Notes: generated by a model from the letters alone, not told the origin. A stretch of DNA of 64,000 nucleotides from Methanomassiliicoccaceae archaeon (GCA_963827905.1 CAWHCB010000001.1:52963-116962); one strand, 5' to 3'. Counted from the stretch's first letter, positions 13,619-57,913 are shown. Made by a program: numbers and translations.

Positions 13619-16600
13619 ATGGACAAGAAAGCTGCCATCAAAGCATATGCTATCGTAGCGATATTGTTGGTCAGCGTTTCTGGAGTCGCATTGGCCCCCT
13701 TCTTGGCGTCTGCTGTCTACAGCAACCCGAGCGGGGACAATAATTCCGTAACGACAGAATGCTTCGATCGCCAGGGCACATCACTATCTGCCTGCAAGGA
13801 CCGCCACTGGCTATTATGAGCAAAACGTCAGTTACAACTGGGGCATCGAAAAGTCGGTGATCCAGGACAAGGCCGAGATCGACGAAGGAAAAACTGCAAT
13901 CATTCCAATATACGCTTACGATCACTCGCGATGAATCGAACGAAAAGAAGTACGGTGTGCGCGGATACATCTGGGTTAAGAACATCGGAGAGCACGACAC
14001 CGTTAAGCTGAAGATCGTTGACTGGGTGCAGACCAAGAAGGCAGGTGAATGGAGCCTACAAGAACTATGTAATGGTCGATGTCGACACCAGCGCCAAGCC
14101 GGTCCTCCAGCCCGGTGAGGAGTACAAGTACTACTATGATATCCAATTCACCCCAGTGCAGGGCGCATTATACCGTAACTCTGCATTGGTAACGATCGAA
14201 AACCATGGGAACAACATGGGTTGCCCGACCGGCCCGAACCCGAAGGCCGACTTCCAGCTGCCCGCGTCCCCAAGCACCACCTATTGGGACGAGACCGCCA
14301 CCATAGTTGACGACCTCGTCGTTCCAGCCCATTACAAGCTGGTATCCAATGACGCCCCGGCGAAGTGGAACATGAACGGACCTGGTGTGTTGAAGTTCAA
14401 CGTCACCATCCAGAACTTCGACGCCACCCCTGGTGACGTCGCTTACATGGACAACGTGGCCAAGCTGACCGAGGGTGATTCCAAGGTCTGCCGCGAGGAC
14501 AACGCCCGCGTCACCCTCACCGGTGGCGACGAGTACATCCCACCTGTCCCCAAGATATCCGTTGACAAGGAGAGCGATGGATGCGTCATGCCCGGTGAGG
14601 TCATCACCTGGACGATTACCATCAAGAACACTGGCAATGTCGATTTGGACACGGTCTATGTGGAAGACTACTTGATCGATTTCAAGGACACGATAAGTCT
14701 ACCCGTTGGAGGACAGATGGTTTACACCAAGACATACCAGGTGCCCCTGTCCTACACTGGTAAGTACGTCGTGAACGTTGTGAATGTTACCGCTGAGCTG
14801 GAGGAAGATGACCTGTTCGTTCAGGACTCCGACAGCGTGCCGGTATGCTACCCACGCCTCACCGTTGAGAAGGTGGCGATGATGGACATGACCGCTCCAG
14901 GGCACTATGCCAACTGGACAATCTATGTGAACAACACCGGCGATGTCGACATGAAGAATGTCGCCGTGTATGATAGTATGTTCGCTCAAAGCCCGATGTA
15001 CGTCGATGTGATGGCGGGCCAGAGCGTCATGATCCACGTCAGCACCACCATTCCAGCGGACAGCAAGCTGAACGAGATCTGCAACACCGTCGAAGTCAAG
15101 TGGTCCTATTCGATCCCTGACGGGGACGGAAAGAAAGACATAGTGTTGGACGACAAAGCCTCCAGCTGCATACCAGTCATTCGCCCCTCGATCGAGATTA
15201 CCAAAGTGGCGAACATGACCTGGGCCTGTGTTGGTGACGAAATCGGATACACGATTGTTGTAACGAACACCGGTAACTATGATCTCAAGGGCATCGTTTT
15301 GTCTGACGAGATGCTACACATCTATGAGACCTTCGGGTTGAGCCCTGGAATGTCAAAGACATTCACTGACTCCTACATAGTGGAGCAGGGCGACAAGAAG
15401 ATCGAGAACAACGCCAGTGTCTTCGTCGATGTGTTCAATGACAAGCACTGCGTACTAGAGGACTATGCCATTGCATGCGTGAACGTTGGGTACCCCGCCG
15501 TTGACGTCTACAAGGTCGGTCCGTCCCAAGCCCTATACCCTGGTGACAAGTTCACCTACACCATCTACGTCAAGAACATCGGCAACGTGCCTCTGGAGGA
15601 CGTGAAGGTGGTCGACAGCCTTATCGGTCTGGACATCCAGGTCGACCTGGCCGTCGGTGAGAACAAGTCCATCAGTGTGCCCTGGGAGATCCCAGCCAAT
15701 TTCATGGGTGACAAATACTGCAACAAGGTATTCGTCGAGGGCTCCTGGTGCCATTGCGCCGTGAAGGACACCTCTGAGTGGTGCATCGATGTGCTGCACA
15801 TGCCGGGCCAACCCTGCATCAGCATAGAGAAGCACGGACCATGCCGCGCCATGGCCGGTGAGACCGTACCATACTTCATCGTCGTCAAGAACACCGGTGG
15901 TGTCCCTCTGAACAACGTGAATGTCAGCGATGACATCGGTGCCGACGGCATCGATGTGAAGTGGTTCTACTACGATGGCATCTTGATGCCTGGCGCATAT
16001 TGGAACATCACCACATCCGCCACCATCCCGATGGACTTCAAGGGACCATACTTCGTGAACGTGGTCGAGGTAAACGGCCAATATGATGGAAAGAACGTCT
16101 GGTGCATCGACTCCCATGCGATCGATATCATCCACCCGTCCTTCACCATCGTGAAGTCCGCCCCGAAGCTATCCGCTCTGGGCCATGACATAACCTACAC
16201 CCTCTGGGTCAACAACACCGGTGATGTGGACCTGATCAACATCGTCATCACCGATGAGAAGGCCCCTATGGGTCAGTTCAAAATCGATTACTTGGCCATG
16301 GGCGCTTCCGCCGAACTGACATACATGTGGAACGTGCCGATGAACTATCAGCCTGATGAGGTCTGCAACGACGCTTGCGGCTCCGCGTTCCCTGGCCCGT
16401 CCGCCTACTGGTGCGGATGCGGTGAGAGCTGCCCCTGGTTCGAAAAGACGAACTTCGGGCGCGAGGTGAAGGCCGAGTCAAACAAGGTTTGCACCTTCAT
16501 CGTGAAGCCTGGCATCGATGTGGAGAAGACCGGACCTGAGATGGCCAAGATCGGAGAGACCATCCAGTACAACATAACCGTGAAGAACACGGGTAACTAC

Positions 16601-18505
16601 AAGATCGAGAACGTCACAGTATCCGACCCGTTGATCAACTTCAAGCAGAAGGTAAGTCTCGCCTCCGGCGAGTCAACCTACTTCTTGGTCAACTGGTTAG
16701 TGACCGAGGACTGGGTCACGCAGAACATCAGACAAAAAATTCAACGTCTGCAACCTGGTCAACGCCACTGGCGACACGTTCGACGACAAGCACTGCATGG
16801 TCTATGACGAGGACGTCCATTGCGTCTTCATCGGAGCCCCGAGCATTGAAATCATAAAGAAGGGCCCGGCTGAAGCGTTCCCCGGTGAGGTCATCGAGTT
16901 CAACTTCACCGTGACCAACAACGGCAACTTGCCGCTGTTCAATGTGAACGTCACCGACGCGTTGCTCGGTGCCGACTGGTACCACTACATCGGCAAAATG
17001 TCCGTTGGAGCGGTGGTCCAGTTCAACGCCAGCTACACGATCCCAAAACCGTTCGAGGGCAACTCCTTCAAGAACGTGGCGATCGTGACCGGCGATGATG
17101 TCACCGACACCACCGTGAACGACACCGACAACACCACCGTGTTCGTGGCCAAGCCCGGCATAGAGGTCTACAAAGGCTGGGACTTCCCCATGACCGCGGT
17201 TGGGACACTGGGTAAACTGGACCATCCAGGTGAAGAACACTGGCAATGTGAACCTGACCGGCGTGGTCATCGATGACCCGCTGACCAAGGAGAGCTGGAC
17301 CGTGGAGTTCCTCGAAATCGGCGAGTCCAAGTATTTCACCGCCCATTATCAGGTGACCATGGACAGCCCATGGGACAAGACCTACATGCTCTGCAACATT
17401 GTGTTCGCTGAGGGATACTACAAGACCGTCAAGGTCTCCGACAGCGACCAGGATTGCGTGTTCGTGGCCTTGCCCAGCTTCGAGGTTACCAAGACCGGCC
17501 CAGAGTACGTCTGCTACGGTGACGACATCGTATGGACCATCACCGTGAGGAACACCGGTAACGTCGACCTGAAGAACGTGACCATCACTGACCCGTTGAC
17601 GGGCAATGAGTGGGAGAAGGTCTGCATCGAGGTTGAAAAGGTATGGTCTAAGACCGTCTCTTACGACACCGATGGAACCGAATCCGACAGGATCGCTGTC
17701 CCAAGCGACACGGTCTGCAACACCGTCTACGTGGTTGCTGACACGTTCGACGACGGGCACTGCATCTTGGAGGGTAATGCCCAGAGCTGCGTCTTCGTGG
17801 CGAAGCCCGATGTCGAGGTCGAGAAGTCTGGACCAAGGGTCGCCGTTGGTGGCGAGAAGATCACCTACACCATCACCATCAAGAACGTCGGCAATGTGGA
17901 CCTCAACGTCCACGTACAGGATGTCTTGCTGAAGGTGGATGAGACGGTCTTCGTGGCCAAGGGCGCCACCGTGGTCAAGACCTACGATTACTGCGTGCCA
18001 CTGTGCAACGCTGGGTCCGTGATCTACAACACCGTCATACGTCAACGGTACCTGGACCGTGTGCAACAAGTGCTACGACCTGGACGAGGCGACTTGGAAC
18101 GTCGAGATCCTGGACCGATCGATCAAGATCCTGAAGACCGGTCCGGAGAGCGCCAAGGTCGGCGAGACCATCACCTTCACCTTCAATGTGTGGAATGATG
18201 GCGATGTCGCCCTGGAGAACGTCTACGTCTATGACCCACTCTTCGAGAAGTTCGTATGCAGCACACCGGTTCTACCTGGCGAGTGATGAAGAACGAGGAG
18301 AACGATGTCCTGGATGTCGGTGAGCACTGGGTGTTCTCTGTCCAGTTCACCATACCGGCGGATTACCTGTATGGGTGCCTCCTGTGGTGAGCTGAACAAC
18401 TACGCCTGCGCGCACGGCTCCTACAATGGTGTCTCGACCACTTGGGGCGATGGATGGGCGGTCTATGTCTATGACCCCACCTGCCAGCCCCCAGTTCCGG
18501 TATGA
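13619..18505 (+). pseudogene. Giant surface/adhesin-like protein with DUF11-type repeats (about 1,600 codons); at least 8 frame breaks
   Basis: GGGGAGGA Shine-Dalgarno plus an N-terminal signal/anchor (MDKKAAIKAYAIVAILLVSVSGVALA). After that come about 12 repeats of the pattern P.I.I.K.GP....GE.I.Y.I.VKNTGNV.L..V.V.D. Coding sequence hops frames near 13800, 13915, 14040, 16740-16800, 17200-17270, 18050, 18265 and 18385. The end, ...GDGWAVYVYDPTCQPPVPV*, is followed by a terminator hairpin. Confidence 0.75.
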
Positions 18506-27289: not shown

Positions 27290-27358
27290 ACGATGATCGG
27301 GAACTTCTCTCATAGCGAAGCTTTAAACCGTCTCAGCCTGATTTTGTCGGTGGTTCAC

Positions 27359-27920
27359 ATGAAAGTGCTGGGAATTTCAGGAAGTCCGAGAAAGGACGGT
27401 AACACCGAGATCTTGATCATGGAGGCGTTGGAAGGGGCCAAGGCCAAGGGCGCTGAGGTCGAGTTCGTCTCCCTGGCCGGGAAGGACATCAAAGGTTGCG
27501 TGGCCCACCCCACCTGCGGGCAGGGGGGCAAGTGCCTTATCGATGACGACATGACCGACATCTACCCCAAGATGATGCAGGCCGACGCCATCATCATCGG
27601 CACGCCGATCTACTTCGGCAATATGACCTCCCAGACCAAGGCGCTGTTGGACCGGACCTATCTCCTATCGAAGATGGGCCGAAAGCTGGAGGGAAAGGTC
27701 GGGGGCGTGATCGCGGTGGGCGGTCGGGCCGGGCACGAGCTGACCACGGCCTGCCTGATGGATTTCATGACCTTGCAGGGGTTCGTGCTGCCTGCAGGCG
27801 CGTTCGCCCACTCCATGGTGAGGGAGATCGGGGCGGCACGCTACCGACGAGAAGAGCATGAAGGCGGCCCGGGCCTTGGGCGAAAGGGTAGCCATTCTCG
27901 CCACCAAGGTGAGGACCTAG
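27359..27920 (+). CDS. Iron-sulfur flavoprotein / NADPH-dependent FMN reductase family; one frame break near 27840, TAG stop
   Basis: MKVLGISGSPRKDGNTE..., IIIGTPIYFGNMTSQTKALLDR and GGVIAVGGRAGHE are typical Isf/FMN_red. After the shift the frame reads ...DEKSMKAARALGERVAILATKVRT* and ends at TAG 27918-27920. Confidence 0.7.
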
Positions 27921-27932
27921 GGCGATTCGACG

Positions 27933-28352
27933 ATGTCCCCTGCCTCGGTGCCAAAAGGTTCCTATCTTCTCCTTCTCCACCTGGGAGAAGAGGTCGAACT
28001 GGACGTGGGCGCCCCGGGCATATGCACCTTCCCCAGAGGGACCTACGTTTACGCTGGATCGGCCCAGTCATCCCTTTTCGCACGGGTGGGGAGGCATTTC
28101 TTAACCGAAAAGAAGGTGCACTGGCACATCGACCGCTTGCTATTGCATGCCAAACCGGTCTCGGCGATAATGATCGAGGGGGACGACAGGGAGTGCGAGA
28201 TCAACCGGTTGGTCGCCGGGACGGAGGGCTCGCGCATGGTGTGCGAGGGCTTCGGTTCGTCAGATTGCGACTGTCCCACCCATCTGCATCTCATCGAGGA
28301 GGACATGCTGCCGACCATCATCAACGAGATGCGCTGGCTCGACGGAGCTTAG
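27933..28352 (+). CDS. DUF123 / GIY-YIG superfamily (Uri-like) protein
   Basis: GSYLLLLHL, GTYVYAGSAQSSLFARVGRH, KKVHWHIDRLL match the DUF123 signature as I remember it. Confidence 0.7.
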   Translation: MSPASVPKGSYLLLLHLGEEVELDVGAPGICTFPRGTYVYAGSAQSSLFARVGRHFLTEKKVHWHIDRLLLHAKPVSAIMIEGDDRECEINRLVAGTEGSRMVCEGFGSSDCDCPTHLHLIEEDMLPTIINEMRWLDGA

Positions 28353-28403
28353 GGAGAGCGAGGTCCCGACCACATTTTATATCCCAGCTACCACGATACT
28401 GTA

Positions 28404-28652
28404 GTGCCTGGAGAGGTCGATATCTTGGACAAGGTCAAGAGGCTTGAGGAGAAGATAAAGGAGCTGAACGCGCTCAAGGCGGACTACCGCAAGGAGCTGG
28501 ACGAGGCCCAGTTCAAGCTAAGCAAGAAGGAGATGGACAAGGAGCACTTCGACAAGGTCAAAGATAAGGTCCACAAGAAAGAGGCCAAGATCAATGCCAA
28601 GATCATCGATCTGCGACAGAAGGTGGAAGCGTTAAAGAAAGGTGGCGCTTGA
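28404..28652 (+). CDS. Small coiled-coil protein (hypothetical)
   Basis: K/E-rich heptad-like sequence. The more likely start is TTG 28425, preceded by GGAGAGG 8 nt upstream. Confidence 0.4.
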   Translation: MPGEVDILDKVKRLEEKIKELNALKADYRKELDEAQFKLSKKEMDKEHFDKVKDKVHKKEAKINAKIIDLRQKVEALKKGGA

Positions 28653-33919: not shown

Positions 33920-36421
33920 TCACACCCTCTCCTTGATGATCTCAGGCACATAGGTCCGCAACAGTGCGGCATTGGTGACGACTGTGACTGAGCTCAGAGC
34001 CATCGCCCCTGCCGCCAGCGCAGGCGGTAGCAACAATTGGAAACTGGGATATAGAATACCTGCGGCCACCGGTATGCCGATGGTGTTGAAAGCGAAGGCC
34101 CAGAACAGGTTCTGCCGGATCTTCACCGAGGTCCTTGCGCTCAGCTGGATCGCGGCCACGACGTCCCTTAGGTCGTTCCTTATGAGGACGATGTCGCCCG
34201 TCTCGATGGCCACATCGGTGCCGGAGCCCACCGCGATGCCCAGGTCGGCCTGGGCCAGGGCAGGGGCGTCGTTGACCCCGTCCCCGACCATGGCCACCAC
34301 CTTGCCTTCCTTCTGGAGGGCGGCCACCTGCTCCGCCTTCTGGCCGGGAAGCACCTCGGCCAACACGCGGTCTATGCCGAGCTGTTTGGCGATGACATCG
34401 GCGGTCCGCCGGTTGTCACCGGTCATCATGACCACCTCCACCCCCATGCGCTTCAGCTCGTTCAACGCCACCAGGGCGGAATCCTTCACCACATCTGAGA
34501 CCCCGAGCACGCCGACCGCCATTCCGTCCCGCGCCACCACCAGGGTGGTACGCCCCAGGTCCTCCAAACGGGCGATGTGCGATTCGACCGGAGCGAGGTC
34601 CACCGAGTTGTCCTGCATGATCCTCCTCGACCCTACCAGTACCGACCTGCCCTCGATATTGGCCGAGATGCCTTTGCCAGGCACGTTCTCGAACTGACCG
34701 ACCTCTGGCAGTTCGGACCTTTCCTCGGCCCTCCTGACGATGGCCTTGGCTATGGGATGCTCGGACCCTCTCTCGGCCGCACCTGCGGTTCGCAGCAGGT
34801 CCTCCTCGGCGATCCCGATGGCGACGACATCGGTCACCTCAAGTCTGCCCTGGGTCAAGGTACCGGTCTTGTCGAAGACCATGACTCCGACCTTACCCGC
34901 TATCTCCAACGCCTCCCCGTTCTTGATCAAAATGCCCAGTTCCGCGCCCTTCCCGGTCCCGACCATGATGGCGGTCGGTGTGGCCAGGCCAAGGGCGCAG
35001 GGGCAGGCGATGACCAGCACGGCGATGAATACCGACAGGGAGAACGGGAAGACCTGGTCCACCTCATAGTACGAAGCCCCAAAAAAGTACCAGAAGAGGA
35101 AGGCGGAGACGGCTATGGTGATGACGATGGGAACGAAGACCGAGGCCACCCGGTCGGCCATGCGTTGGATGGGGGCCTTGGACACCTGGGCCTCCTCCAC
35201 GAGACGGATGATCTGGGCCAGCGCGGTGTCGGCCCCCACCCGGGTGGCCCTGACCTTGAGCAATCCATTGCTGTTGATGGAACCCCCTACCACGGAAGAG
35301 CCCTCAGCCTTGTGCACCGGTAGGCTCTCTCCGGTGATCAGGGACTCGTCCACCTCCGATTCGCCCTCGACCACCAGGCCATCGGTGGGGACCTTCTCCC
35401 CTGGTCGGACCACCATGACATCATTGACATCAAGCTCATCGACAGGAACGGTCACCTCCTTGCCCTCACGCATTATGGTGGCGCTCTTCGCCTGCAGGTC
35501 GATCAGCTTTCGTATGGAATCGGAGGTGCGGGACTTGGCCCTGGCCTCGATGTACTTGCCCAACAGCACTATCGCGATGATGAGGGCGGCGCTGTCATAG
35601 TAGACATCAGTGAAGGGGAAGGCGTCAGGAAAGAAGGTCACTGCCACCGAGTAGAAATAGGCCGCCGAGGTGCCGACCGCCACCAACACGTCCATGTTGG
35701 CCACGCCATTGCGCAAGGATTTGTAGCCGCCGATATAGAATCTGTAACCGGCGACGAACTGGATCGGCGTGGTGAGTAGGAACAGGATGTAATTGCCATA
35801 GTCCATCAGGAAGGGCTCATCGCCCAATGGGGTGAACATCATCAGCATCATGATGACGAATACTGGCAACGCGAGCGTCCAAGCGAAGACCAGAAATCGT
35901 CTCTGGCGAGCCGTCTCCTCGGCCCTAAGCTCCCTCTCCGCATCCACCGTCTGTGCCTCAAGCACGTCGTATCCAGCGTCCCTGATGGCCTGCTTGATCT
36001 GTTGCAGGCGAACCTGTTGCGGATCGTATCTCACCGTCACCTTCTCGGTGGCAAGGTTGACCGAGGCGGACAGAACGCCAGGTAACGACAGCAACGATTC
36101 CTCCACCGAAAGCACGCAGGAGGAACAGGTCATGCCCCCGACGGCGATGGTGACCTGGTTCAATATGACCCCATATCCGGCCTGGTCTATGGCGGAGGCC
36201 ATCTTTTCCATGGTCACCTTCTCGGGGTCGTAGACCACGGTGGCCTTCTCGGTGGCAAGGTTGACGCTCGCCTCTTCCACCCCCTCCAATCCCTGCAGCG
36301 ATTCGGTGATGGTCTGAGCACAAGTGGCACAGGTCATACCGGTGACCCCGAAGCTTGCCGTCCTCTTTCCTTTGGACCCCAGTTCCGGTCGGTCTGACCC
36401 GCCGTCCTTAGCGTCGCTCAT
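33920..36421 (-). CDS. copA: Copper-translocating P1B-type ATPase
   Basis: 833-aa intact ORF with two HMA domains (GMTCATCAQ, GMTCSSCVL), TGES, the CPC motif (ACPCALGLATP), DKTGTLT, and GDGVNDAPAL. Confidence 0.95.
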   Translation of the reverse strand: MSDAKDGGSDRPELGSKGKRTASFGVTGMTCATCAQTITESLQGLEGVEEASVNLATEKATVVYDPEKVTMEKMASAIDQAGYGVILNQVTIAVGGMTCSSCVLSVEESLLSLPGVLSASVNLATEKVTVRYDPQQVRLQQIKQAIRDAGYDVLEAQTVDAERELRAEETARQRRFLVFAWTLALPVFVIMMLMMFTPLGDEPFLMDYGNYILFLLTTPIQFVAGYRFYIGGYKSLRNGVANMDVLVAVGTSAAYFYSVAVTFFPDAFPFTDVYYDSAALIIAIVLLGKYIEARAKSRTSDSIRKLIDLQAKSATIMREGKEVTVPVDELDVNDVMVVRPGEKVPTDGLVVEGESEVDESLITGESLPVHKAEGSSVVGGSINSNGLLKVRATRVGADTALAQIIRLVEEAQVSKAPIQRMADRVASVFVPIVITIAVSAFLFWYFFGASYYEVDQVFPFSLSVFIAVLVIACPCALGLATPTAIMVGTGKGAELGILIKNGEALEIAGKVGVMVFDKTGTLTQGRLEVTDVVAIGIAEEDLLRTAGAAERGSEHPIAKAIVRRAEERSELPEVGQFENVPGKGISANIEGRSVLVGSRRIMQDNSVDLAPVESHIARLEDLGRTTLVVARDGMAVGVLGVSDVVKDSALVALNELKRMGVEVVMMTGDNRRTADVIAKQLGIDRVLAEVLPGQKAEQVAALQKEGKVVAMVGDGVNDAPALAQADLGIAVGSGTDVAIETGDIVLIRNDLRDVVAAIQLSARTSVKIRQNLFWAFAFNTIGIPVAAGILYPSFQLLLPPALAAGAMALSSVTVVTNAALLRTYVPEIIKERV

Positions 36422-43540: not shown

Positions 43541-43568
43541 TGTTTAGGTTTCGTCCGCTCAGCAGCAG

Positions 43569-46500
43569 CCGCACACGATCATTATGCTCCAGGAGGCCTC
43601 CTCATGCACGCAGCAGCACGGTATCTGAGATCATCCGACTAGGAAGCCGTCTGGCATCCATTCGCAGTCCCAGCACTCGCAGCAGCAACCGACGATGTTG
43701 ACGCACCCGTTCACATAGTGGGTCACACCATCGCAAGCCGGTATCACTACCGTGCCTGGTGAAGGTGATGGACTCACATGGGGCGAGGCACCAGATCATC
43801 TCGTTCAGACCGAGCCTGGCATCGTACACCTTAAGGCCGCAGGCCATGCTAGAACCCTCATTGGTCACCGTTACGGTGACAGTGACGGTCTCGCCGGACT
43901 TGGCGGTCTGCGGGTAGTCGATGTCGATGCGGACATCGCAGGCATCGCTCACGTAGACATAGTTGCTGTAGCTGACTGTCTGAGAGACTCCGCACTGCCA
44001 TCCCTTAGCGGTGACCGTGTTGACGATGACGTTACCATCATCGCAATACGACCAGTCCGCGGGACCTGGTAGCTCGAAGACGGCCTGTTGCAGCGTACAC
44101 TTGGTCTCATGGTTGCAGTGGTGCAGGCATCAGGCAGTCGATCCTGGCGTGCAGTCCGATCAGGTCATCATCAACGTATACGTTGGTGATGGCGCAGGTA
44201 CCAGCGTTCATCACGACGACCGTGTAGTAGATCACAGTCGCCAGGCATCGCGCACTTGAGACCGAAGTTGTTGATCTTCATGACCTCAAGGTGGAACTCG
44301 TTGTGCACGTACAGCTTGTTCTCAGCACAGGCCAGCTCGATCCACGGGTTGTAGCCGCAGTCGCGTCACCTTCTCGCAGCAATCGATGTCGTTGACCAAG
44401 CCCCATGCGATTACCTTGTCGTACAGGTAGTCGCCATAGATGCAGTACCACTCGGGCACGGTGTACTCGAAGGTCCACACGTACTCGGTCGCACGGCGCC
44501 AGGCAACAGATCATGTCAGACGGAAGTCGACTGGCATGCCATCCGATCCATATCGATGTCCATGAGGTATATGCAGGAGACGGAGTGCTCACCGACGTTC
44601 TTCACGGTGATCTCGTAGGTCACGACATCACCGGGCCAAACCTCGGTAACCAGCTTGCCATCGACATAGGCCATCTTGGTCATCAGCAGCTGCGGGCCGC
44701 AGACCTCAAGGCAGATGCACTCGCTGTCCATGATCGTAACCCTGCCCAACACTGGGCAGAGCTCACAGGCCATGGCAGTGAAGCAGTCCTCAAGGTACTT
44801 ACCGTCGTCGCAGAAGGTCCAGTCGCTCGGGATGGTGTACTCGTACTCGTAGTACGCGCTCTCTCCCGGAGTCAGGGCGGACACGTTGACCTCGTGAACG
44901 TTCATGAGGGTGTCCACCAGCTCGAACCCGTTGATGGTGTACTTACCGACGTTGGTTACTGCAACGCTGAAGTAGATAACATCTCCAGGCTCTGGGCAGC
45001 ACATCTGCGAGCACCTCTCGCCGTGCCGTTCGCACATCCAGTAGGCAATTATGGTGACATCAAGGTCAAACACTGGCCTGACCTCAACCTCACCCCTGAC
45101 CTCCCTGGACAGCACGCAGCAGTCATCGTTGTTCCCGTCGAGGCAGCACTTCGCGGTAACGGCGGCATCGTTGTAGACCATGGTTATGGACCCGTTGCAT
45201 GGCACTGGCATGGACTTGTCGAAGACCTTTGTGGACTTCGACGCGCCCGCGGCCAGCTCACCCACGTACCAGTAACCACCCAGCTAGGAGGTTATCGGTC
45301 ACGTTGACGCAGTACAGCTTTTGCACTCCGGTGTTGTGTCACCGTGATGCTCCAGCCGATCACTTCATCGGACCAGTACCACTCCTTCAGCGGGGTCTTG
45401 GTTATCTCGATGTCGCAGTCGCCCTCTACCATGACGCATCTCAGTGTCCGACCAGGACACGAAGACATCCTCCGCCCAGGCGGTGGCGGTCACGCTGTTG
45501 GTCAGCATGAAGTCGCCGCAGCATTCCTGGGGCACGATGAAGTCGATCATGATCTCCTTGGTCTCGCATGGAGCGAGGCAGCATGTCAGGCTCTTGTCGT
45601 ACAACACCCACTCGCCACCCTGGCACGATGTCATCACATCGGTGACGTTGATGCAGCTCAGGGCGATCTTGCCGGTGTTCTTCACGACGACCTTCCAGGT
45701 CAGCTTGTCACCTGGGTTGATCTCGATCGTCGCCAGGCGAAGGTGTCATCGTTGACCATGACCAGTTCCTTCCAGACCCGGATGCTCTCATCGATTCCGA
45801 CGACCTTGACGCTTACATCGTCGCAGGCCATGTCCATTCCGAGTCCATCAACAGCGGGCAACCTATCGCCCATGCCACTGACCGTGTTGTTGATCCACTC
45901 GCCGTCGCAGCAGTAGGTCCAGTCCTCGGGCACAGTGTAGGTCACGGTGTAGGTCTCGCTGTCGCAGGGCATCAGGCACTCGATGGTCTCGCAGAAGTTC
46001 AGCATCTCGTCGACGATCATGACGGAGCTCAGCATCTTCGAGCCAGCGTTCCACACCGTTATGGTGTAGGTGATGGTCTCGCCAGGCATTGCCTCGTCAG
46101 GCTTGTCGGCGGTCTTGCTTATCCTCAGGTCCATCGGGTCCCAGATCATCAAGGACGTGCTGTCGGAGTCGCTGACGCGCTTGGTGCACGCCCACGCGGA
46201 TACCTCCACCTGTTCTCGATACACTCTCCATCCTCGCAGTAGACCAGTCCGCCGGGACGGTGAACGGTACCCGGATGCAGATCGTCTCGAACGGCTTGCA
46301 TGCAGGGTATGACTAGTAGAAGTCGAGCATCTCGTCCTCTACCTCGACGCAACCAAGGGCCTTGCAGTTGGGGTTGGTGACTGAACTTGTACCAGAACCG
46401 TCTGGCCCGGCACAGCGAACTCGATCGCATCCGCACTGCTACAGTAGACGTTCTTCTCCACCTCGATGGTGGGTTGGATGTCCACGATCTTGGTCATCGT

Positions 46501-49500
46501 GTAGTCATAACCATGCATCATCTCGCACGGCCAGCAGGCCTTGCCCATGACATAGACGCCAGTTGTACAGCCATTCGCCGTTCATGCACGTCCAGTCTGC
46601 AGGCACGGTGTACTCAACCGTGAAGTTGTACCATTCGCACGGGTCCAGGCAGGGGATCTCGCGGTAGTCCAGCATCTAGTAGAACGGCCTCATGGAACAT
46701 TGCCAATGTTGCTGATGTAGTCAGATACCTTCAGGCAGCACAGGGGCTGCTTTCCGCGTTGTACACGCTGATCTGATAGCTGATGGTCTCACCGGGCGAG
46801 GCCTCGGATGGTCCGCTCTTGTACACCTGAACGATATGGTCCACGTTCACTCAATACGGTCTCAGAGTCGTCTGCGCTCACGGCAACGTCGCAGGCATAG
46901 CCGGCAGCGTGTAGCGGTGTTCACAAGGTACTCGCCATTCTCGCAGTAGGTCCAGTCACACGGTATCTGATAGCGATACCTCGAATCGCCTTCTGCTCGC
47001 AGGGGAGCAAGCACGGGATGCATCCAACGTATCCGATAAGACTGTCGGTGACTTCGATGCAGCTCAGTGGCAGGCAACCCTTGTTGTAGACAACGATCTT
47101 GTAGTAGACCGTCTGTCCCGGTTTTGGCCTCGAATCGACAGTGTTATCGGTGACGAAGCCTCGATTGGAATCCCCGGGTCGTTGCGTTCCAAGGTATATC
47201 TTGTCGACGATCAGGGTGATCGGGTCGTATAGGCCGACAGTCATGCGAGCCTTGTCTTGGCCCAAGCGTTCGCTTCTCGCAGCTGAGGAGCACTCGCAGC
47301 ACAATGCCTTGGCATACACGTCGACGAACAATTTATCCTTGTCGTCGCAGTGGTTCCAGTCGGCAGGGTATGGTGTAATGTACCACTCCCAGCTCATGGT
47401 CTGTCCAGGCATCAGGCCATCGAGCTCCTGGTAGAAGCCGATCGCTTTGCGTCTCCACCGACACGCAACAAACCGCTGTCACTCCAGGGTTGGTCGCAGT
47501 GATGGTGAAGATCACGGTCTCACCAGGCTCGGCGCATTCTGGTCCGGTGATCTCGACGTCGATGGCGCAGCAGGGCCTGATCCATCACGCTACCCTATGT
47601 CGCCGTCCCAGATCTCCTTCTCAGAGCAACCGCACTCGCCCTCGACCAGGCAGAGTAGGACAACCAGTATCCAGACTGGCAGCACTCCTCGCAGGTGGGG
47701 ACGGTGTAGTTGAAGGTGAACTCCTTCGACTCACCGGGGTTCAGGTAGACTGATGCATCCGAGCTTGTACCACTCGAAGTCGTGGCACTTGCAGGACTTG
47801 ACCATGGCGACCACACGTCCATCTGAACGATGGTCATGTTGCCGTCGTTGGTGACGGTGACCGTGAACTCCACGGTCTCGACCGGGCACGGCTCACTCCT
47901 GGGCCCATCGACCTCGATGTCCAGGCTGCACGGGCACATGACCATAGAGTACATGTGGTCTTCAGCGAACACTTCGGTGGTGCGCACCCAGGCGGTCGCC
48001 TAGACATCAGTTGCCACAGCTTGTAGTCCTGTCTTGCAGCATTCCTTCGGCACCGTGTACTGGAAGGTCAGCGGGACCTCCTGGCACGGGTGTCAGGCAT
48101 TCGATGGTGGACTGGAAGTCGATCGTCCCCATCCTTGTCGACGTCATCAACGACATCGATGTAGGACAGGATCTTGCTACCAGCGTTGCGGACCAATATC
48201 TCGTAGGTAATGGTCTGGCCCTGGTACACTACCTCAGGCGCGGACTTCTCGATCTCCAGGTGGTACTCGTCCTTTATCTCGATGCTCACGCTGGAGCTGT
48301 CGCTCACTGGGATGCCACAGGCGTAACCGGAGGCAGTCGCGGTGTTGACTAGGTAGTCACCGTCGTCGCACCAGGCCCAATCTGCGGGCACGGTGGTCTT
48401 GATCTCCTTAGGTCCACTGAGTTCATCATTCCGGCCTGGCAGGATGGGCAGTCGCAATCCTCGCCGCCAGTCATCGATGGTCCTCGCATCGGCCATGTCA
48501 GCCACCTCGCAGGGCAACCGGCATGGCATCAGGCAGCAGATCCACTCGTCCACGTCCGAGCTCTCGTCCACGACGTGCACGCAGGTGATCGGGTATGGTC
48601 CGATGTTCCTGACCGTCAGGGTGTAGGTCGATCTGTTGTTACCGTACAACGGGTTGGCGTAGGCCACGGAGACGTTCGCGGTCTTTATTATCTCGATCTG
48701 CGGCGGGTAGATTATCTCTACGTCGATGCAGTCCTCGTCCTTGACCCACTTGCCGCACTCGCAGCAGTAGGCACAGGCTCCAGCCTCGTTCTCGACCATG
48801 TGTCGGGTCGTCGCACCAGTTCCAGTCGGCACGGTACGGTGTACACGAAGGTGTAGGTGACGCTCTCGCAGGGGTCAAGGTCGCAGCCGAGGTCGATCAT
48901 ACCTTCTGCGCACGGCCATCTGCTCCCATACCTTCAGGGCGCAGAGGCTGTTCATTCCGGTGTTGGTTATGACCAAGGTGTACTCGATGGTGTCACCAGG
49001 GGCGGCCTCGTCCACGTTGGAGTACTTCTGTACGTCTGATGGAGCAGCAGTCCAGTGATGTGTGTGCTCCAGGAGGCCTCTCCGCGGGCGATAGCCGCCG
49101 GCGCAACAGGCCTGGGCTTTGAAGGTGTTGTTCATCCATTCTCCGTCATTCACAGTAGGTCCAGTCTGCGGGGATCTTCAGTTCCACCGTGAAGTTGAAC
49201 CACTGTCCCGGCATCAAGGGTCCACGGCACCATTGGCGTTCCAACGGCGCACGGGATCACTTCACCGGAGTACGAGTCGAATATCGCGACGACGGTGCCA
49301 TCGCCGAGGGTTATCTCATCGTGCAGCCAGAAGTTGGTCATGCACGGGTACTGGCCAGGGATAGGCGCAGTTGTACAGGCTGTACTCCCAAACTATCGTG
49401 TCACCGGGCTTGGCCTCGGTTGAGCCGGTCTTGGTGACCAGCAGGCAGTCGCAGTCGCAGGGCGACTCCACCTCTACGGTGTGGTCGTCATCGTCCCTGA

Positions 49501-52214
49501 CCTGTATGCCGCAGCTTCCGAGCGCGGTCACATAGGCGTAGTTGTCGACATCTCCGCTCTCCGGGGCGACGGTGGTGTAGGTGAACTCCCACTTGGCACC
49601 GACGGCCAGGACGCCACCGTTATCGGTGTAGGTCAACGTCACGCCGACCGGCGGGTCGTTGAATACCACGTTGCTCAACGGGGTGTCTCCGGTGTTCATT
49701 ATGGAGAATGTCCAAACGATGTCCGCACCAGGCTCTACGTTGTCAGGACCGCCCTTCTCGATGCTGATCTTCGGGTTAACTACGCTAACCGAGACAGAAT
49801 CGCTGCTGTCGCTGACGTCGCCGAACTGTGAGCTAGCGACTACGGAACCGACGTTGGTCACGGTGCCGGAGGTCATCGGGGCGTTGGATGTCTTGGTGCC
49901 ACGAATAGGCTCGCTCCAACGACCAGGTCAGGCAAGGCCTTGTTCGTTGATGCCCAACAGCGGGTCGTCTGAACAGAACGTTGGTCAGGTTGATGTTACC
50001 GATGTTGTTGACAGTGAACTGCCACACGATCGGCGCTCCCACCTGAACGCACTGGGGGCGCTTCTTTATTATCTCAATTCCTGGGCTGTCCAGAACGACC
50101 TCGACCACAAATGCCGATGAATCGGATACGTCGGTCACATCGCCACATTGGGACTGAAGCGGTGACGGTGGCCACGTTCGTCACAGTTCCGGGCTCCGTT
50201 AGGCGCGATGGACTTCAAGGTGAAGTTCCAGTACGCACCGACCGCAAGGACTCCTCCGTTGTCGGTGTAGGTCTTGCTCACGGCGAGCAATGGGTCATCA
50301 AAGATGACGTTGATCAACGGGGCGTCTCCGATGTTCTTGATGGAGAAGGTCCAAACGATCTCGCTACCGGCTCCGACCTCGCTGTTCGGTCCACCCTTGA
50401 CGATATCGATCGCGGGGTTGATCACCAGTGACGGAGTGGTCGTCGGTAACGTTCAACTGCGCTCCACAGGGGGCGTCAGCGGTCACATAGGCGTAGTTGA
50501 CTGCAGATCCAGTGGCTCCCGGGGTCGTCACATAGGTGAAGGTCCAAGAGGCTCCTGGGGCCAGGCTGGCCAAGGGCACAGTCACGCCGGCGGGCGGGTC
50601 GACGAGCACGAGGTTGGTCAGCGCCACATCGCCGGTGTTCGTGATGTTGAACGTCCAGGTGATGGAGTCGCCGAGCCTGATGCAGTCAGGGCCGCCCTTC
50701 TACGAAGGTCATGGACGGGTTGACGATGGTAACGGTCGCATCATCCATGGCCTCTACGTCATTCCACAGGAGGCGGTCGCGGTTACGGACGCCTCGTTCT
50801 TAACAGAGCCGCTCATCGGCGCAAGGCTGGTCTTGGTGAACACGAAGCTGGCACCTGGGGCAAGGTTACCAAGGTTCTGGTTCGATATTGCCAGCGCGGC
50901 ATCGCTGAACAGCACGTTGTTCAATTGGACATCGCCAGTGTTGGTGATGTTGAAGGACCATGTGATGGTCGCTCCGCCTCCGACGCACTCCGGTCCGGTC
51001 TTCACGAGGCTTATGCTCGGGTTGACCACGTTGACCGTGGTGGTGGAGGAGTTAGACAACGGCATGCAAGCGAACTTGCCGTATACCGTCGCGGTGTTCA
51101 CGAGCTTGCTCGGCGTGGTCTCATCGGTCTGGTATTCCACGGTGAAGGTCACTTCGCTGCCGGCGGCCATGTCGCCGATGTAGTGGTTCAAGGAGTCAGG
51201 GAACATCGGGTCGAGCACGGTCACGTTGTTGAGGTAGGCATCACCGATGTTGTACACCGTGAAGGTGTAGGTGATCATGTCTCCCCTCTTGACGCACTCC
51301 GGTGCGGATTTCACGATCTTGATACCAGGCTCGAAGTTGGTGGACAGCTTAACAGTCTCGCTGGCCATCTGGGTCGCGCCCGAGTCGCTCTCAGTGAGCG
51401 TCGCGGTGTTGGTCAGATCGACCTCCTGGAAGAAGCTCGCGAAGACGTTGGTGACCTTTAACGTGTAAGATACCGTTTGGTTATCGGTAAGGGTCCACGG
51501 CCCAACGGTGGTAGGTGATGTCACCCATCCAGAGGGGGCGGTCCAAACGTCTGTCAAGGTAGCGTTGGCGTCCTCTCCGTCCGCCTGCAAGGGCGTGGAG
51601 GTTGCCTTAACGCTCATGACGGCTTCCGCGGCCATCGATTGACCGGTCCGGTCGATCAGGTTGCTGATCGACACACGCTCAATGTTCTGGTACGTTGCAC
51701 CCTCTACATGCTTGAAATAGACGGTGAACGGGTACGAGAACTCTTCTCCCGCTGCCAACACCGGCTTCTTGCTGGTGTCGACGGCGATCGAGGCAACGTC
51801 AACGAAACCGTTTCCAACGTTGGCCTGCACCACATCTGTGATCATCAAGTTCTTGGTCGCGGCGGAGCCCACGTTCTTAACGTGGACGCTGCCTTTGACA
51901 GCCATCACAGAAGCAGAGTCAGAAGCCGTACGGGACGCGGTAATCGTATAAGTCACGTCAGCTGATTCTCCTGGCGCCAATAGCAAAAAGTCAGGAGTGG
52001 CGGTTTTACTCAAGGTCCAATCATACGCTTGAGTAGTTGCTATAGTTGGTTGCGCATCCTGGTCGACGCTGACCTGTGTACTAGTCTGAGATGATCCAGA
52101 GGCATTTCCGAACCAATCTGGATTCATACTTCCGACCAATAACAGGACGCCTACCGTACATAGTGCTAGCACTACGATGATGGCTACCACTTTCTGGGCA
52201 CCTGATTTATTCAT
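43569..52214 (-). pseudogene. Giant surface/adhesin-like locus (about 2,880 codons). N-terminal signal anchor, then Cys-poor DUF11 repeats (52.2-49.3 kb), then Cys-rich repeat modules (49.3-43.6 kb). At least 20 frame breaks; may be one gene or a fusion of two.
   Basis: GGGGAGGA Shine-Dalgarno plus MNKSGAQKVVAIIVVLALCTVGVLLLVG. The N-terminal domain is paralogous to the 13.6-kb locus. About 20 consecutive ORF fragments on the - strand all carry the ...PG..I.Y.I.V.N.G...L..V.V.D... pattern. Later modules add CLAPCE / (Y)TVP.DW.YC.DGE.(I/L).N motifs. The last stop is TGA at 43571-43569. Confidence 0.7.
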
Positions 52215-54211: not shown

Positions 54212-54892
54212 GTGACTGGTGATGTCGTGGTAGATGCCCTAAGGGGCATCAGCTTGGAGATCGAGAAGGGGGAGATGGTGGCGGTCATGGGCCCATCGGG
54301 ATGTGGTAAGACCACCTTACTGAACTGTCTGTCTGGAATCGATGAGCCCACATCCGGCAGTGTTTACATCGAGGACTCTGAGATGACGACCATGGCAGAC
54401 GACCAGAAGACCAATTTCAGGGCTCGTCGCATGGGGTTCATCTTCCAGTTCTATAATCTGTTGCCAGTACTAACGGCGGTGGAGAATGTGGAGCTCCCTT
54501 TGCTCTTATGTGGGGAGAAGCCTGATGTCGCCACCAAGAGGGCCATGGACCTCCTTACTGTGGTTGGTCTCAAGGAAAGAGCCATGTTAAGGCCTTCAGC
54601 CCTGTCCGGGGGGGAGCGTCAAAGGGTGACCATCGCCCGAGCCCTGGCCAACGAACCTGCCCTGGTTTGGGCGGATGAGCCCACCGGTGACCTTGATAAG
54701 AAGACCGCGGAAGACATCGTGGCATTGATGAGGAAGCTGAACAAGGAAAACAAGGAGACCTTCGTCATCGTGACGCACGATCCCGAGGTCGGCGCCCAGT
54801 GCGACCGTATCATCCATATGAGAGATGGGGACATCATATCCCTGAATGGTAAGATCCAATCCATTAAAAAGGACATCTGCGAGCTTGGGTGA
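54212..54892 (+). CDS. ABC transporter ATP-binding protein (MacB/LolD/FtsE-like)
   Basis: Walker [11 protein letters not shown]-loop, signature [15 protein letters not shown] and Walker [13 protein letters not shown]. Homologous sequence ([13 protein letters not shown]) extends upstream of the GTG at 54212 without a canonical start codon. Confidence 0.85.
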
Positions 54893-57800
54893 GCACCTTG
54901 AAGCTGACCAAGGGATATTTCGCCTCTGCGGCCATTCTCATTGTCCTATTAGTGCTCTCGATATTGCTGCTTCCGCTCACCTATGCGTTGGTGGCCGTCG
55001 TGGTCCTGATATCGGCCTTCATCCTCCTGGATGCCAGCCATCATAAGGTATTGTTCACGATGGCCCGGCGTAACTTCATCAGACGCAAGAGCACGACCGC
55101 CTTGGTCATCGGTGGTCTGATGGTGGGAACGGCCATCATAGCGGCCTCGTTCGTGGTCGGGGACACATTGGACAACATGATAGTTAATGAGGTCACGAAG
55201 GGCGCAGGTGATGTGGACTTCGTTGTCGCTTCGATCAATGAGCAGGGAGGTTACGATTTTTACAACCAGACCTTCTCGGACAACCTCACAGCACAGTTCC
55301 AGTCGATACCCAATGTGGTCGCTGTGGCCCCTTTGGTAATGGACTCCTTCAGTATCCAGAACCTAGACAACGGTCTCTCCACACCCAATATCATGGCGAC
55401 CGGTGTGAACGAGTCCCTTTGGACGGCATTCGGTGGGTTCCAAGACGATGATGGAAGGACATTCTACACCGCTCCGTCCGCGACAGGATGCTATCTATTT
55501 GTCGACGCTGCCAAGGACCTTGGGGCTAACGTGGGGGACTCGGTGGTGATAGCTCAAGGTGAGACCTTCCTGGTTCTCACCGTAGAAGAGATTGTTAGGA
55601 ACAATGAGCCCGGGCAGGGCGGTCTGAACAGCGCGGTCTGGGTGGACATCCAGACCCTCCAGGTAGGCTTTAATCGGACCGGGGAGATAAACACCTGGTT
55701 CATCCACAACAGCGATATCAATGGCGAGATCTATGGCAACAACGACCAGGTGAGGGACGATATAAATGCCATATTGGCCCCGATAGAGCCCAGCACTGGC
55801 CTTGAGATCGTCTTCGATGTTAAGCAGATATTGGTGGATGGACAGGCCCAACTAGAGATCTTCACCCAATTGTTCCTGGTATTCGGTTCGTTCTCTGTCA
55901 TCGCCGGCATTGCTCTCGTTATAAACATCTTCACCATGCTCGGTGAGGAGCGCAAGAGCGAGATGGGCATGGCCCGGGCTCTTGGGATGCGTAGGGCCGA
56001 CCTGCGCAGATTGCTCACCTATGAGGGTCTACTTTACGCCGTGGCGGCCTCCGCCGTAGGTTCGTTGTTCGGTCTGGCGATAGCCTATGGATTGATCTAT
56101 TTCGTCGATACTGCATTTCAGTTCGCCAGTGTGCCACTGACCACATATTTCTCCTTCACAGGGTTCTCATTGGCGATCTCCTTCTTGGCCGGGTTCCTGC
56201 TGACGATCGCGACCGTCTACATCACCACCAGGAGGATATCCAATCTGAACATCGTCCGGGCCGTACGTAACATACCCGAGCCACCGGTGGAGAGAAAGGA
56301 CCGGCGCGCGTTCCTAATGGGAATTGCAGGAATATCGGTGGGGCTACTGTTCATTCTCGTGGGCATCTTAACGAAGAAATGCCGGTCCAGCATATGCAGG
56401 CCTTTCCACGATGATTCTGTCCTCTGGATTCATCCTCCGTCGCATAATGGGAGATAGATTGGCATGGAGCATTGCCAGTCTGGCGACCTTGATATTATGG
56501 TTACCCCTCCCGGAACAGATAACACCGTTCAACGACTACGAATTCGGCATCGAGATGTTCATCATAAGCGGTCTCTTCATGGTGGCGTCCTCCCTGATAT
56601 TGGTCATATTCAACTCGTCCTCGATCGTCTGGTTCATGACAAAGCTCTTCAGGACCCGTGGCAGCTATAGAGCGGTGGCTATCACCGCGGTCTCCTATCC
56701 ACTCAGGGCCAGGTTCCGTACCGGGCTAAGTATATTCATCTTCGGCCTGGTGATATTCACCGTAACCGTCCTGACGATACTCTCGGGGTTGATCGGAGCA
56801 GGTGTCGCTACAATGGTAGAGGAATCCTCGGGCGGTTTCGATGTGATCGCCTTCAAGTCTTTGCCCGTCCCCATGCCGAACGACCCCTGGCAGTACATCA
56901 ACGAGTCAGGAGGGCCGCTCCAACCTGGGAACGTATCTAATATGATCGCGCTGCCGGCCATGCCTGCGACCGCCAATTACACCGGCGTCACATCCACAGG
57001 TTCCGTTGTACTTGCTGATAAAGGAACGAGTGTGATCGGATTCGATCAAAGGTTCTTCACTGAAGGCAACTTCCCCTTGTCGCAGTTCAACAGTTCCATC
57101 TATGGAAGTGCAGAAGAGGTATACCAGGCAGTGCTTTCCGATCCAGGTCTTGTGATCGTGGACGGTAGCTTCGTAGTTATGGATGGGGGAAATTTCGGTG
57201 GGCAGCCAGGAGTGGAGCAGAGCCCAGGGGTCACATTGGGACAGACTATCCGTCTGGAATCCGTGTTCGGTACTTTCCAGAACGTAACTGTGGTCGGGGT
57301 CATGAAACAACAGTTCCTGAGCGGAGTGTATATGGCCACTGATGTCGTGACCACTGCATATGGTGCAGAAGGCCCCTCCATCATGCTCATCAACTTCGCG
57401 ACCGGGTTGGATGTGGCAGAGCAGGCGGCGCTATTGGAAATCGAGTTCCTCCCCTGGGGTGTGCTCACCATCAACGTCGAGCAGCTGGCCCAGGAGATCA
57501 CCGGGGCCATCAATAGCATCTTCACCTTGTTCCGCGCCTTTCTGGCCATCGGTCTGATAATCGGGATAGTGGGTCTAGGGATCATCACCATCCGTTCCAT
57601 AAACGAACGTAAATTGGAGATAGGCATGATGCGCGCCATAGGTTTCAGAAGAAGGATGGTGGTCGTCAATTTCGCCATCGAATCAGCTTTCGTTTCGGCC
57701 TTGGGCATCATGATCGGGACGGTCATGGGATATATCGTCGGGTATAATCTCTGGAAGACATCCTTCAGCGGTTCGGATTTCGCCTTTGTGGTGGATTGGT

Positions 57801-57913
57801 GGCCGATAATATTCGTTGGTCTGATAGCGTTCATCGCGACGATACTATGTGTCTATCCAGCGGCTCGCGGAGCGAGCAAAGTGTCCCCCGCAGAGGTGTT
57901 GCGCTTCGACTGA
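54889..57913 (+). CDS. ABC transporter permease with two FtsX/MacB-type modules (about 1,008 aa); one frame break near 56377
   Basis: The start overlaps the ATPase stop. Two large extracytoplasmic domains are each followed by FtsX-type TM triplets ([21 protein letters not shown]... and [20 protein letters not shown]...). The fragments join as ...[23 protein letters not shown], with the break at an AAGAAAT run. Confidence 0.8.

Follow-up and report, generated by a model that had tools for sequence, protein, structure and literature searches.

What would a strictly anaerobic methanogen do with an exported protein that carries about 150 cysteines? Strict anaerobes usually export proteins with few cysteines, and the question is raised by a locus on the minus strand (52.2-43.5 kb) of a 64,000-nucleotide stretch from a Methanomassiliicoccaceae archaeon (GCA_963827905.1, CAWHCB010000001.1:52963-116962; hereafter the window). 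We find that one gene occupies this locus and encodes a giant, predicted surface protein of the CLIPPER_2 family (formerly DUF7507) of a Methanomassiliicoccales archaeon, and that the last 16 of its 22 tandem modules are rich in cysteine. Our leading, still tentative, answer is that these cysteines are structural cross-links added to a stalk already held together by isopeptide bonds.

Past the first 486 codons the locus shows no long open reading frame (ORF), and more than 25 short ones lie in three frames. A reconstruction of the frames by codon usage alone misplaced several junctions and was superseded by homolog-guided alignment. Orthologs were recovered by searching with a provisional reconstruction, and the final frames come from a frameshift-aware protein-to-DNA alignment guided by two of them, P0010 (an ENA homolog) and P0007 (2,227 amino acids (aa), intact with an incomplete N-terminus). 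P0010 served for its first 1,789 residues only; its last ~100 (about residues 1790-1892) are unrelated to the family and are probably a chimeric or frameshifted contig end. The result is one gene running from 52214 to 43561 and encoding 2,879 aa, 80% identical to the guide, with its stop codon TGA at about 43561-43563. It includes 62 frameshifts (40 of +1, 7 of +2 and 15 of -1), which are confined to 50759-43561, and two in-frame stops, a TAG in module m14 and a TGA in a cluster of three +1 insertions, both adjoining indel clusters. Three further orthologs are intact: P0008 (2,846 aa, from Logan), P0011 (2,596 aa, from an NCBI Methanomassiliicoccales metagenome-assembled genome, MAG) and P0012 (2,804 aa). 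An iterated hidden Markov model divides the window protein into 22 modules (m1-m22), and these three orthologs have the same 6(7)+16 layout. An earlier note on this DNA had recognized the repeat and given its modules a uniform length of about 130 aa; in the corrected protein they range from 105 to 145 aa, with about 120 typical.

Residues 1-918 hold 11 cysteines (1.2%), versus 144 (7.3%) in residues 919-2879 (1,961 aa); the background in twelve other ORFs of the window is 1.0% (binomial p 1e-74). The switch lies at about 49,460 (..ESPCDCDCLLVTK..) and opens a succession of 16 Cys-rich modules (m7-m22, 49453-43571) with 5-15 Cys each; over the alignment of window and homolog modules, the mean is 8.4 per module in Cys-rich versus 2.5 in Cys-poor modules. 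The earlier note had already described a Cys-poor first third and a Cys-rich remainder. Its counts of 5 Cys in a 486-aa fragment (ORF 50754..52214) and 18 in a 249-aa fragment (44516..45265, 7.2%) are exact, and the motifs it listed (CLAPCES, CCLAPCE, ECLMPCDS, DW.YC.DGEW and GCCCECWDCEW) are all found, across all three minus-strand frames; the position it gave for the switch, about 49.3 kb, has to be moved.

In the alignment of the Cys-rich modules, cysteines occupy columns 2 (39%), 37 (54%), 53 (68%), 57 (68%), 75 (94%), 91 (49%) and 92 (75%). In the Cys-poor modules m1-m6 and their homolog counterparts they tend to stand in columns 14 (67%) and 92 (61%), whose co-occurrence is not significant (17/5/9/2) and which may not form a simple pair. 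In the wider family they are found at columns 62 and 52/53. The positions hold after frame correction, as the earlier note had supposed: P0008, P0011 and P0012 keep 76%, 54% and 50% of the window cysteines, and 41% are kept in all three, versus 24% for all residues. Cysteine is among the best-conserved residues between clades with only about 33-34% identity. An origin of the cysteines by chance or from wrong frames is ruled out, the same cysteines being present in intact homologs.

The ORF fragments of the locus all match Pfam DUF7507 and DUF11, and the NCBIfam model TIGR01451 also matches the repeat protein, in agreement with the earlier assignment to a DUF11-like repeat in a predicted exported methanogen protein. 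On DUF7507 (PF24346, gathering cut-off 27 bits), ORF 50754..52214 scores 79.7 bits, four Cys-rich fragments 35-41 bits, and a single Cys-rich module 34.3 bits, above the cut-off. Since 2025 the names of DUF11 and DUF7507 have been CLIPPER and CLIPPER_2 (PF01345/PF24346; PMC12617251). These domains are CnaA-like, occur in fibrillar surface proteins and form an intramolecular Lys-Asn isopeptide bond catalysed by Asp, with a crystal structure of a CLIPPER domain from Acinetobacter silvestris (9IFR); disulfides are predicted beside the isopeptide in 29.7% of CLIPPER and 34.9% of CLIPPER_2 domains, 173 Euryarchaeota domains included (PMC12617251). Covalent stapling is therefore already a defining feature of the family, and the earlier view that no such chemistry had been described for it does not stand; the undescribed part is the high-density Cys pattern of the present modules.

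An AlphaFold2 (AF2) model of one Cys-rich module is a compact seven-stranded beta-sandwich (predicted local distance difference test, pLDDT, 97.5; predicted template modelling (TM) score 0.87), as in the CnaA-like fold of about seven strands of CLIPPER_2. A Foldseek search with the model finds 9IFR with TM scores of 0.64/0.58 and an E-value of 5e-4, generic immunoglobulin-like folds (TRAP-beta, CARDB) scoring equally well or better. In a comparison of the sequence profile with PDB, 9IFR is the top match, and the catalytic triad aligns to its K715, D748 and N806. This triad (K8/D42/N83) is present in 33/33, 33/33 and 30/33 of the Cys-poor modules, respectively, and in 56/87 (16 further being alignment gaps), 77/87 and 70/87 of the Cys-rich modules. 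Within the window protein, the Lys is found in 13 of 22 modules, the Asp in 19 and the Asn in 15. Modules m11, m12 and m22, which have the highest Cys counts (10-15), lack the triad. Mean-field direct coupling analysis (mfDCA) on 1,579 modules places 8-83, 42-83 and 8-42 among the strongest couplings. Judging from these residues, Lys-Asp-Asn isopeptide bonds would form in most modules. A second AF2 model, of P0002 (the last three modules plus the tail, from a six-sequence alignment), reached a pLDDT of only 61, with the tail below 50, too low to be informative on the tail.

Do the cysteines themselves behave as pairs? Within a module, the N-terminal Cys and Cys91 are both present in 44 cases, both absent in 37 and discordant in 6 (odds ratio 181, p 2e-17), and between neighbouring modules they do not co-occur (odds ratio 1.6). 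Cys53 and Cys57 also co-occur (odds ratio 19). These two pairs show the pairwise gain and loss expected of disulfides; for Cys37, Cys75 and Cys92 no partner emerged. The couplings give the same pairs a structural setting. Columns 2 and 91 are the second-best coupling of the mfDCA, and a ladder of couplings that sets beta1 antiparallel to beta6 (i+j ~91) makes them adjacent; a second ladder, for the beta4-beta5 hairpin (i+j ~110), has the turn of the hairpin between columns 53 and 57. Couplings also connect columns 33-37, 57 and 90-92 among themselves. Together, these ladders and couplings place about 5.5 of the approximately 8 cysteines of a module at the N-terminal pole of the sandwich. Cys75 lies at the opposite pole, facing the next module, and is the sole cysteine there in 26 of 64 modules.

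We propose that the protein would be a giant stalk, N-terminally anchored or secreted, of 22 tandem CLIPPER_2 beta-sandwich modules, most of which keep the Lys-Asp-Asn signature of a self-forming isopeptide bond. Its distal 16 modules would represent a subfamily specific to the lineage, with a gain of about six cysteines per module, mainly in loops of the N-terminal pole (columns 1/2, 33, 37, 53, 57, 91, 92) that face the previous module, together with the near-invariant Cys75. A Cys2-Cys91 link would fasten the end of the strand that bears the Asn to the first strand, and a Cys53-Cys57 link would clamp the beta4-beta5 hairpin. These are the best-supported links, and covariation is consistent with S-S bonds at both. 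Such extra cross-links would stiffen and protect the exposed part of the stalk, and in m11, m12 and m22 Cys staples perhaps replace the isopeptide. The location at the cell surface and the anchoring are likewise predicted from sequence. At the C-terminus, we found no transmembrane segment and no match to a sorting signal; an NCBIfam scan gave only sub-threshold noise for selenoprotein and sorting signals, and no archaeosortase-type C-terminal signal.

Several points weigh against such cross-linking. An even number of cysteines is an accepted signature of disulfide use (PMC2823432), and counts are even in 91.5% of 1,876 Cys-containing modules of other DUF7507-like proteins, versus only 52% of the Cys-rich modules. 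Whether counted by module, by pole or by junction, the cysteines showed no even bias, about half of the counts being even (junction sums 20/45). Cys75, often alone at its pole, has no obvious partner, and because it is almost invariant none can be read from co-occurrence. The host is a strict anaerobe, and disulfides are disfavoured in such surroundings; the ten flanking ORFs contain no Dsb/VKOR-like protein, the search for disulfide machinery having been confined to them, and a paper on VKOR phylogeny had nothing on methanogens. The same parity result, together with an anaerobic host and dense clusters at one pole, keeps a different role serious as the main rival, although we consider it rather unlikely: the cysteines may stay reduced and bind metal in thiolate sites where two modules meet, metallothionein-like or bridged by Zn, Fe, Ni or Co, which would rigidify the stalk or capture scarce chalcophile metals. 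The average of 5.5 cysteines per module at one pole, the abundance of CC, CxC, CxxC and CxxxC in the window protein (23, 13, 13 and 16, respectively) and a tail of the form CCC.HE...CGCC fit such sites. They are at odds with column occupancies of 39-94%, with gain and loss in pairs and not in threes or fours, and with the scarcity of His (22 in 1,945 aa, none conserved across the three homologs), and no metal-binding family was matched. We looked for an invariant set of three or four ligand residues, often with His, and found none; CxxCH occurs 0-1 times per protein, by which haem binding is ruled out. In its strictest form, with no disulfides at all in a reducing, sulfidic habitat and a thiolate cluster at each junction binding Zn, Fe, Ni or Co, the proposal is more doubtful still; if true, the stalk would be an extracellular filament that is bridged by metal or scavenges it, and its modules would be the first isopeptide stalk domains to depend on metal. 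Disulfide stapling and metal binding had both been raised in the earlier note, and both remain candidates that the evidence does not separate.

An improbable further role is that free or odd cysteines bond between modules or between molecules, building a lattice or sheath or attaching the tip covalently to partner cells or mineral surfaces. Odd Cys counts are indeed common, the near-invariant and seemingly unpaired Cys75 sits at the pole facing the next module, and Cys density is highest at the C-terminal tip, where the last module and tail together hold 15 Cys. However, the sums of cysteines across a junction (C-pole of one module plus N-pole of the following one) lack an even bias, the strongest covariation is within modules and not between neighbours, and no evident partner or processing gene is found among the flanking ORFs. 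Cross-links within the modules remain our preferred reading.

All of these roles presuppose a functional gene, and the 62 frameshifts and two stops, in a gene whose neighbours have almost none, could also be those of a genuine decaying pseudogene, in which case the cysteines would be without current function in the window organism. The closest long-contig relative, on a 156-kb contig (L001/L005) of the MAG MFD05674.bin.2.86 (Methanomassiliicoccaceae; 20.7 kb aligned at 87.5% identity), is also fragmented. We consider this explanation very improbable. Short JGI contigs encode the C-terminal 350-424 aa without interruption and with the same Cys motifs as the window. Compared with two of them (94% and 91% DNA identity), the window has many single-base indels, mostly extra window bases and outside homopolymers; read in the homolog frame, it gives ratios of nonsynonymous to synonymous substitution rates (dN/dS) of 0.32 and 0.28, with 0-1 stops. 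Simulated neutral decay at a matching indel load produced 12-24 stops, versus the two observed. In the related MAG (L005) the gene contains no stops, and most of its 33 frameshifts are +1; only 4 frameshift sites coincide between the two assemblies versus 5.9 expected by chance, and the contig naming of that MAG suggests a long-read assembler. Short-read contigs have intact orthologs of up to 2,846 aa, and in another Methanomassiliicoccales MAG a contig with a SPAdes-type name (NODE_; L004) has an open frame of 2,692 aa. Relaxed selection, accumulated stops and lesions shared with L005 were looked for as marks of a pseudogene, and none was found. Because of a dN/dS near 0.3, only two stops, intact short-read homologs and unshared lesions that are strongly biased to insertions, the breaks are probably consensus errors of long-read assemblies in a hypervariable repeat gene, a point that the earlier note had missed. 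The locus would then exemplify how long-read MAG assemblies can split such a gene into more than 25 false ORFs.

The comparison with L001 also shows how the indels are distributed. The repeat gene contains 8-29 per kb whose length is not divisible by three; for the 34-42 kb flank and the 53 kb bin the count is mostly 0-1 per kb (5 at most), and the 52, 54 and 55 kb bins have 13, 20 and 4. Nucleotide divergence is 12-18% in the repeat gene (43.5-50.8 kb). It is about 4-7% across the N-terminal 1.4 kb of the gene, the 34-42 kb flank and the 53 kb bin, and about 26-28% in the 54-55 kb bins on the other side of the gene. The repeat part is either evolving much faster or scrambled by recombination between repeats. 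The in-frame TAG of the repeat gene, in an indel-ridden stretch, is probably an artefact. Among 16 large ORFs of the window, the stop codons are TGA in 11, TAA in 4 and TAG in 1. Rare use of TAG fits the pyrrolysine-decoding habit of Methanomassiliicoccales.

How widespread are the Cys-rich modules? Searched with a profile, 1.84 billion representative proteins gave 48,395 generic family matches. Among the best 150 of these, the Cys motifs occur in P0011, P0067, P0082 and P0089 only, with P0165 as a looser relative; because ranking by whole-protein score favours giant proteins, this estimate is a lower bound. A scan of 185,579 species-representative genomes with two peptide patterns, which divergent relatives could escape, found two loci, both in Methanomassiliicoccales MAGs. 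A homolog search with the module alignment as query gave no match, and of two metagenome scans one had no match and the other a single locus. Every homolog with a source name is from a Methanomassiliicoccales MAG. As far as this survey of taxonomic spread goes, the modules appear to be a subfamily restricted to the Methanomassiliicoccales lineage. P0165/P0207 (JGI, GEM), another moderately Cys-rich relative, has 4.1% Cys and a similar N-terminal domain, with cysteines in other columns (VCNTG, GEC, ICN, YCH.W). These archaeal stalk proteins may have become enriched in Cys on more than one occasion.

The features of the gene are collected in Table 1.

Table 1. Features of the CLIPPER_2 repeat gene, in window coordinates.
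Feature	Position	Strand	Basis
Whole CLIPPER_2 repeat gene, ~2,879 aa	43561..52214	-	Frameshift-aware alignment
Putative N-terminal hydrophobic signal or membrane anchor (aa 1-30), MNKSGAQKVVAIIVVLALCTVGVLLLVGS	52125..52214	-	Sequence; conserved in P0008, P0010
Non-repeat N-terminal region, aa 31-295 (265 aa)	51330..52124	-	0 Pfam families; conserved in P0008, P0011, P0012
m1-m6, ordinary CLIPPER_2 modules, 1-2 Cys each	49454..51329	-	DUF7507 79.7 bits; K8 and D42 6/6, N83 5/6
m7, Cys-rich, 8 Cys; K/D/N present; long insert	49050..49453	-	Module alignment
m8, Cys-rich, 11 Cys; K/E/N	48704..49049	-	Module alignment
m9, Cys-rich, 10 Cys; K/D/N; Cys-rich insert after CCLMPC	48266..48703	-	Module alignment
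m10, Cys-rich, 5 Cys; K/D/Q	47931..48265	-	Module alignment
m11, Cys-rich, 11 Cys; triad lost, V/A/Y	47573..47936	-	Module alignment
m12, Cys-rich, 10 Cys; triad lost, I/T/V	47155..47572	-	Module alignment
m13, Cys-rich, 8 Cys; D/N; Lys-bearing first strand in preceding linker	46839..47154	-	Module alignment
m14, Cys-rich, 7 Cys; K/D/N; in-frame TAG 46676-46678	46471..46838	-	Module alignment
m15, Cys-rich, 8 Cys; D/N	46135..46470	-	Module alignment
m16, Cys-rich, 7 Cys; K/D/N; ECLMPCDS...DWTYCCDGEW	45745..46134	-	Module alignment
m17, Cys-rich, 8 Cys; D/N; CCLAPCE	45421..45744	-	Module alignment
m18, Cys-rich, 8 Cys; K/D/N	45020..45420	-	Module alignment
m19, Cys-rich, 10 Cys; without frameshift; Asp at Asn position	44669..45019	-	Module alignment
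m20, Cys-rich, 9 Cys	44288..44668	-	Module alignment
m21, Cys-rich, 8 Cys	43941..44287	-	Module alignment
m22 and tail, Cys-rich, 15 Cys; in-frame TGA 43631-43633	43571..43943	-	Intact equivalents P0002, P0004, P0006
Cys-cluster tail, GCCCECWDCEW...CCCVHEE...IVCGCC	~43561-43699	-	Sequence

The window encodes a second CLIPPER_2/DUF7507 protein on the plus strand (14018-18478), with 12 modules, 2.5% Cys in a 929-aa ORF and the motifs WCHCAVKDTSEWC and CGCGESCPWF; this is the milder plus-strand version reported earlier, at about 14.0-18.5 kb. Its ORF begins within a stretch that resembles the main protein's N-terminal domain, and a change of frame near 16.75-16.84 kb indicates that this locus is probably also broken by indels. 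The genes flanking the main locus encode a pyridoxal phosphate-dependent enzyme, a MacB-type ATP-binding cassette (ABC) transporter, an asparaginase, a DUF835 protein, a STAND ATPase and a heavy-metal P-type ATPase, and no obvious partner gene was seen among the ten flanking ORFs scanned. The P-type ATPase, which has two HMA domains, is encoded about 7 kb downstream of the repeat gene (33920-36421, minus strand), and the MacB-like transporter (ABC_tran and two FtsX permeases) about 2 kb upstream (54212-57913, plus strand). Elsewhere, the 384-aa ORF at 27293-28447 (plus strand) looks normal for its first ~200 aa and is then Arg/Gly-rich, overlapping an ORF in another frame (27933-28352). It may contain a frameshift or have lost its stop, outside the repeat genes.

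About 150 predicted extracellular cysteines without an even-number signature, in an architecture kept across Methanomassiliicoccales at about 33-34% identity, pose a concrete question on the extracellular thiols of methanogens: are they S-S staples, metal bridges or free thiols? The modules are also a natural set in which an isopeptide would be combined with extra cross-links, and as such are of interest for protein engineering.

Among known systems, the closest are CLIPPER_2 and CLIPPER themselves. The present modules share with them a profile score above the cut-off, the seven-stranded CnaA-like sandwich, the Lys/Asp/Asn positions, the arrangement in long tandem arrays within a large exported protein and, with about a third of the members, the combination of cysteines and isopeptide. 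They differ in number and pattern: ordinary members carry 0 or 2 Cys, whereas here about 8 Cys per module recur over 16 consecutive modules and a Cys tail, with no even bias. DUF7933, DUF7617 and DUF7927 (77-97% with predicted disulfides) and the actinobacterial pilins likewise combine isopeptides with Cys cross-links in stalks, but theirs are single defined disulfides, unlike those proposed here, and the window module falls below the DUF7927 cut-off (17-22 bits versus 31). The hosts of these three families are mostly aerobic or facultative bacteria with Dsb/MdbA systems. The adhesin-like DUF11 proteins of Methanobacteriales (e.g., Methanothermobacter; PMC12617251) are likewise giant methanogen repeat proteins of the same superfamily; they belong to another order, and we found no report of Cys enrichment in them, so that they are set apart by description only. 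Finally, metallothionein-type clusters resemble the window protein in their dense CC/CxC/CxxC motifs and in being free of an even-Cys constraint; metallothioneins differ in having no sequence similarity to it, and the window cysteines would be carried on the loops of a stable, cross-linked beta-sandwich.

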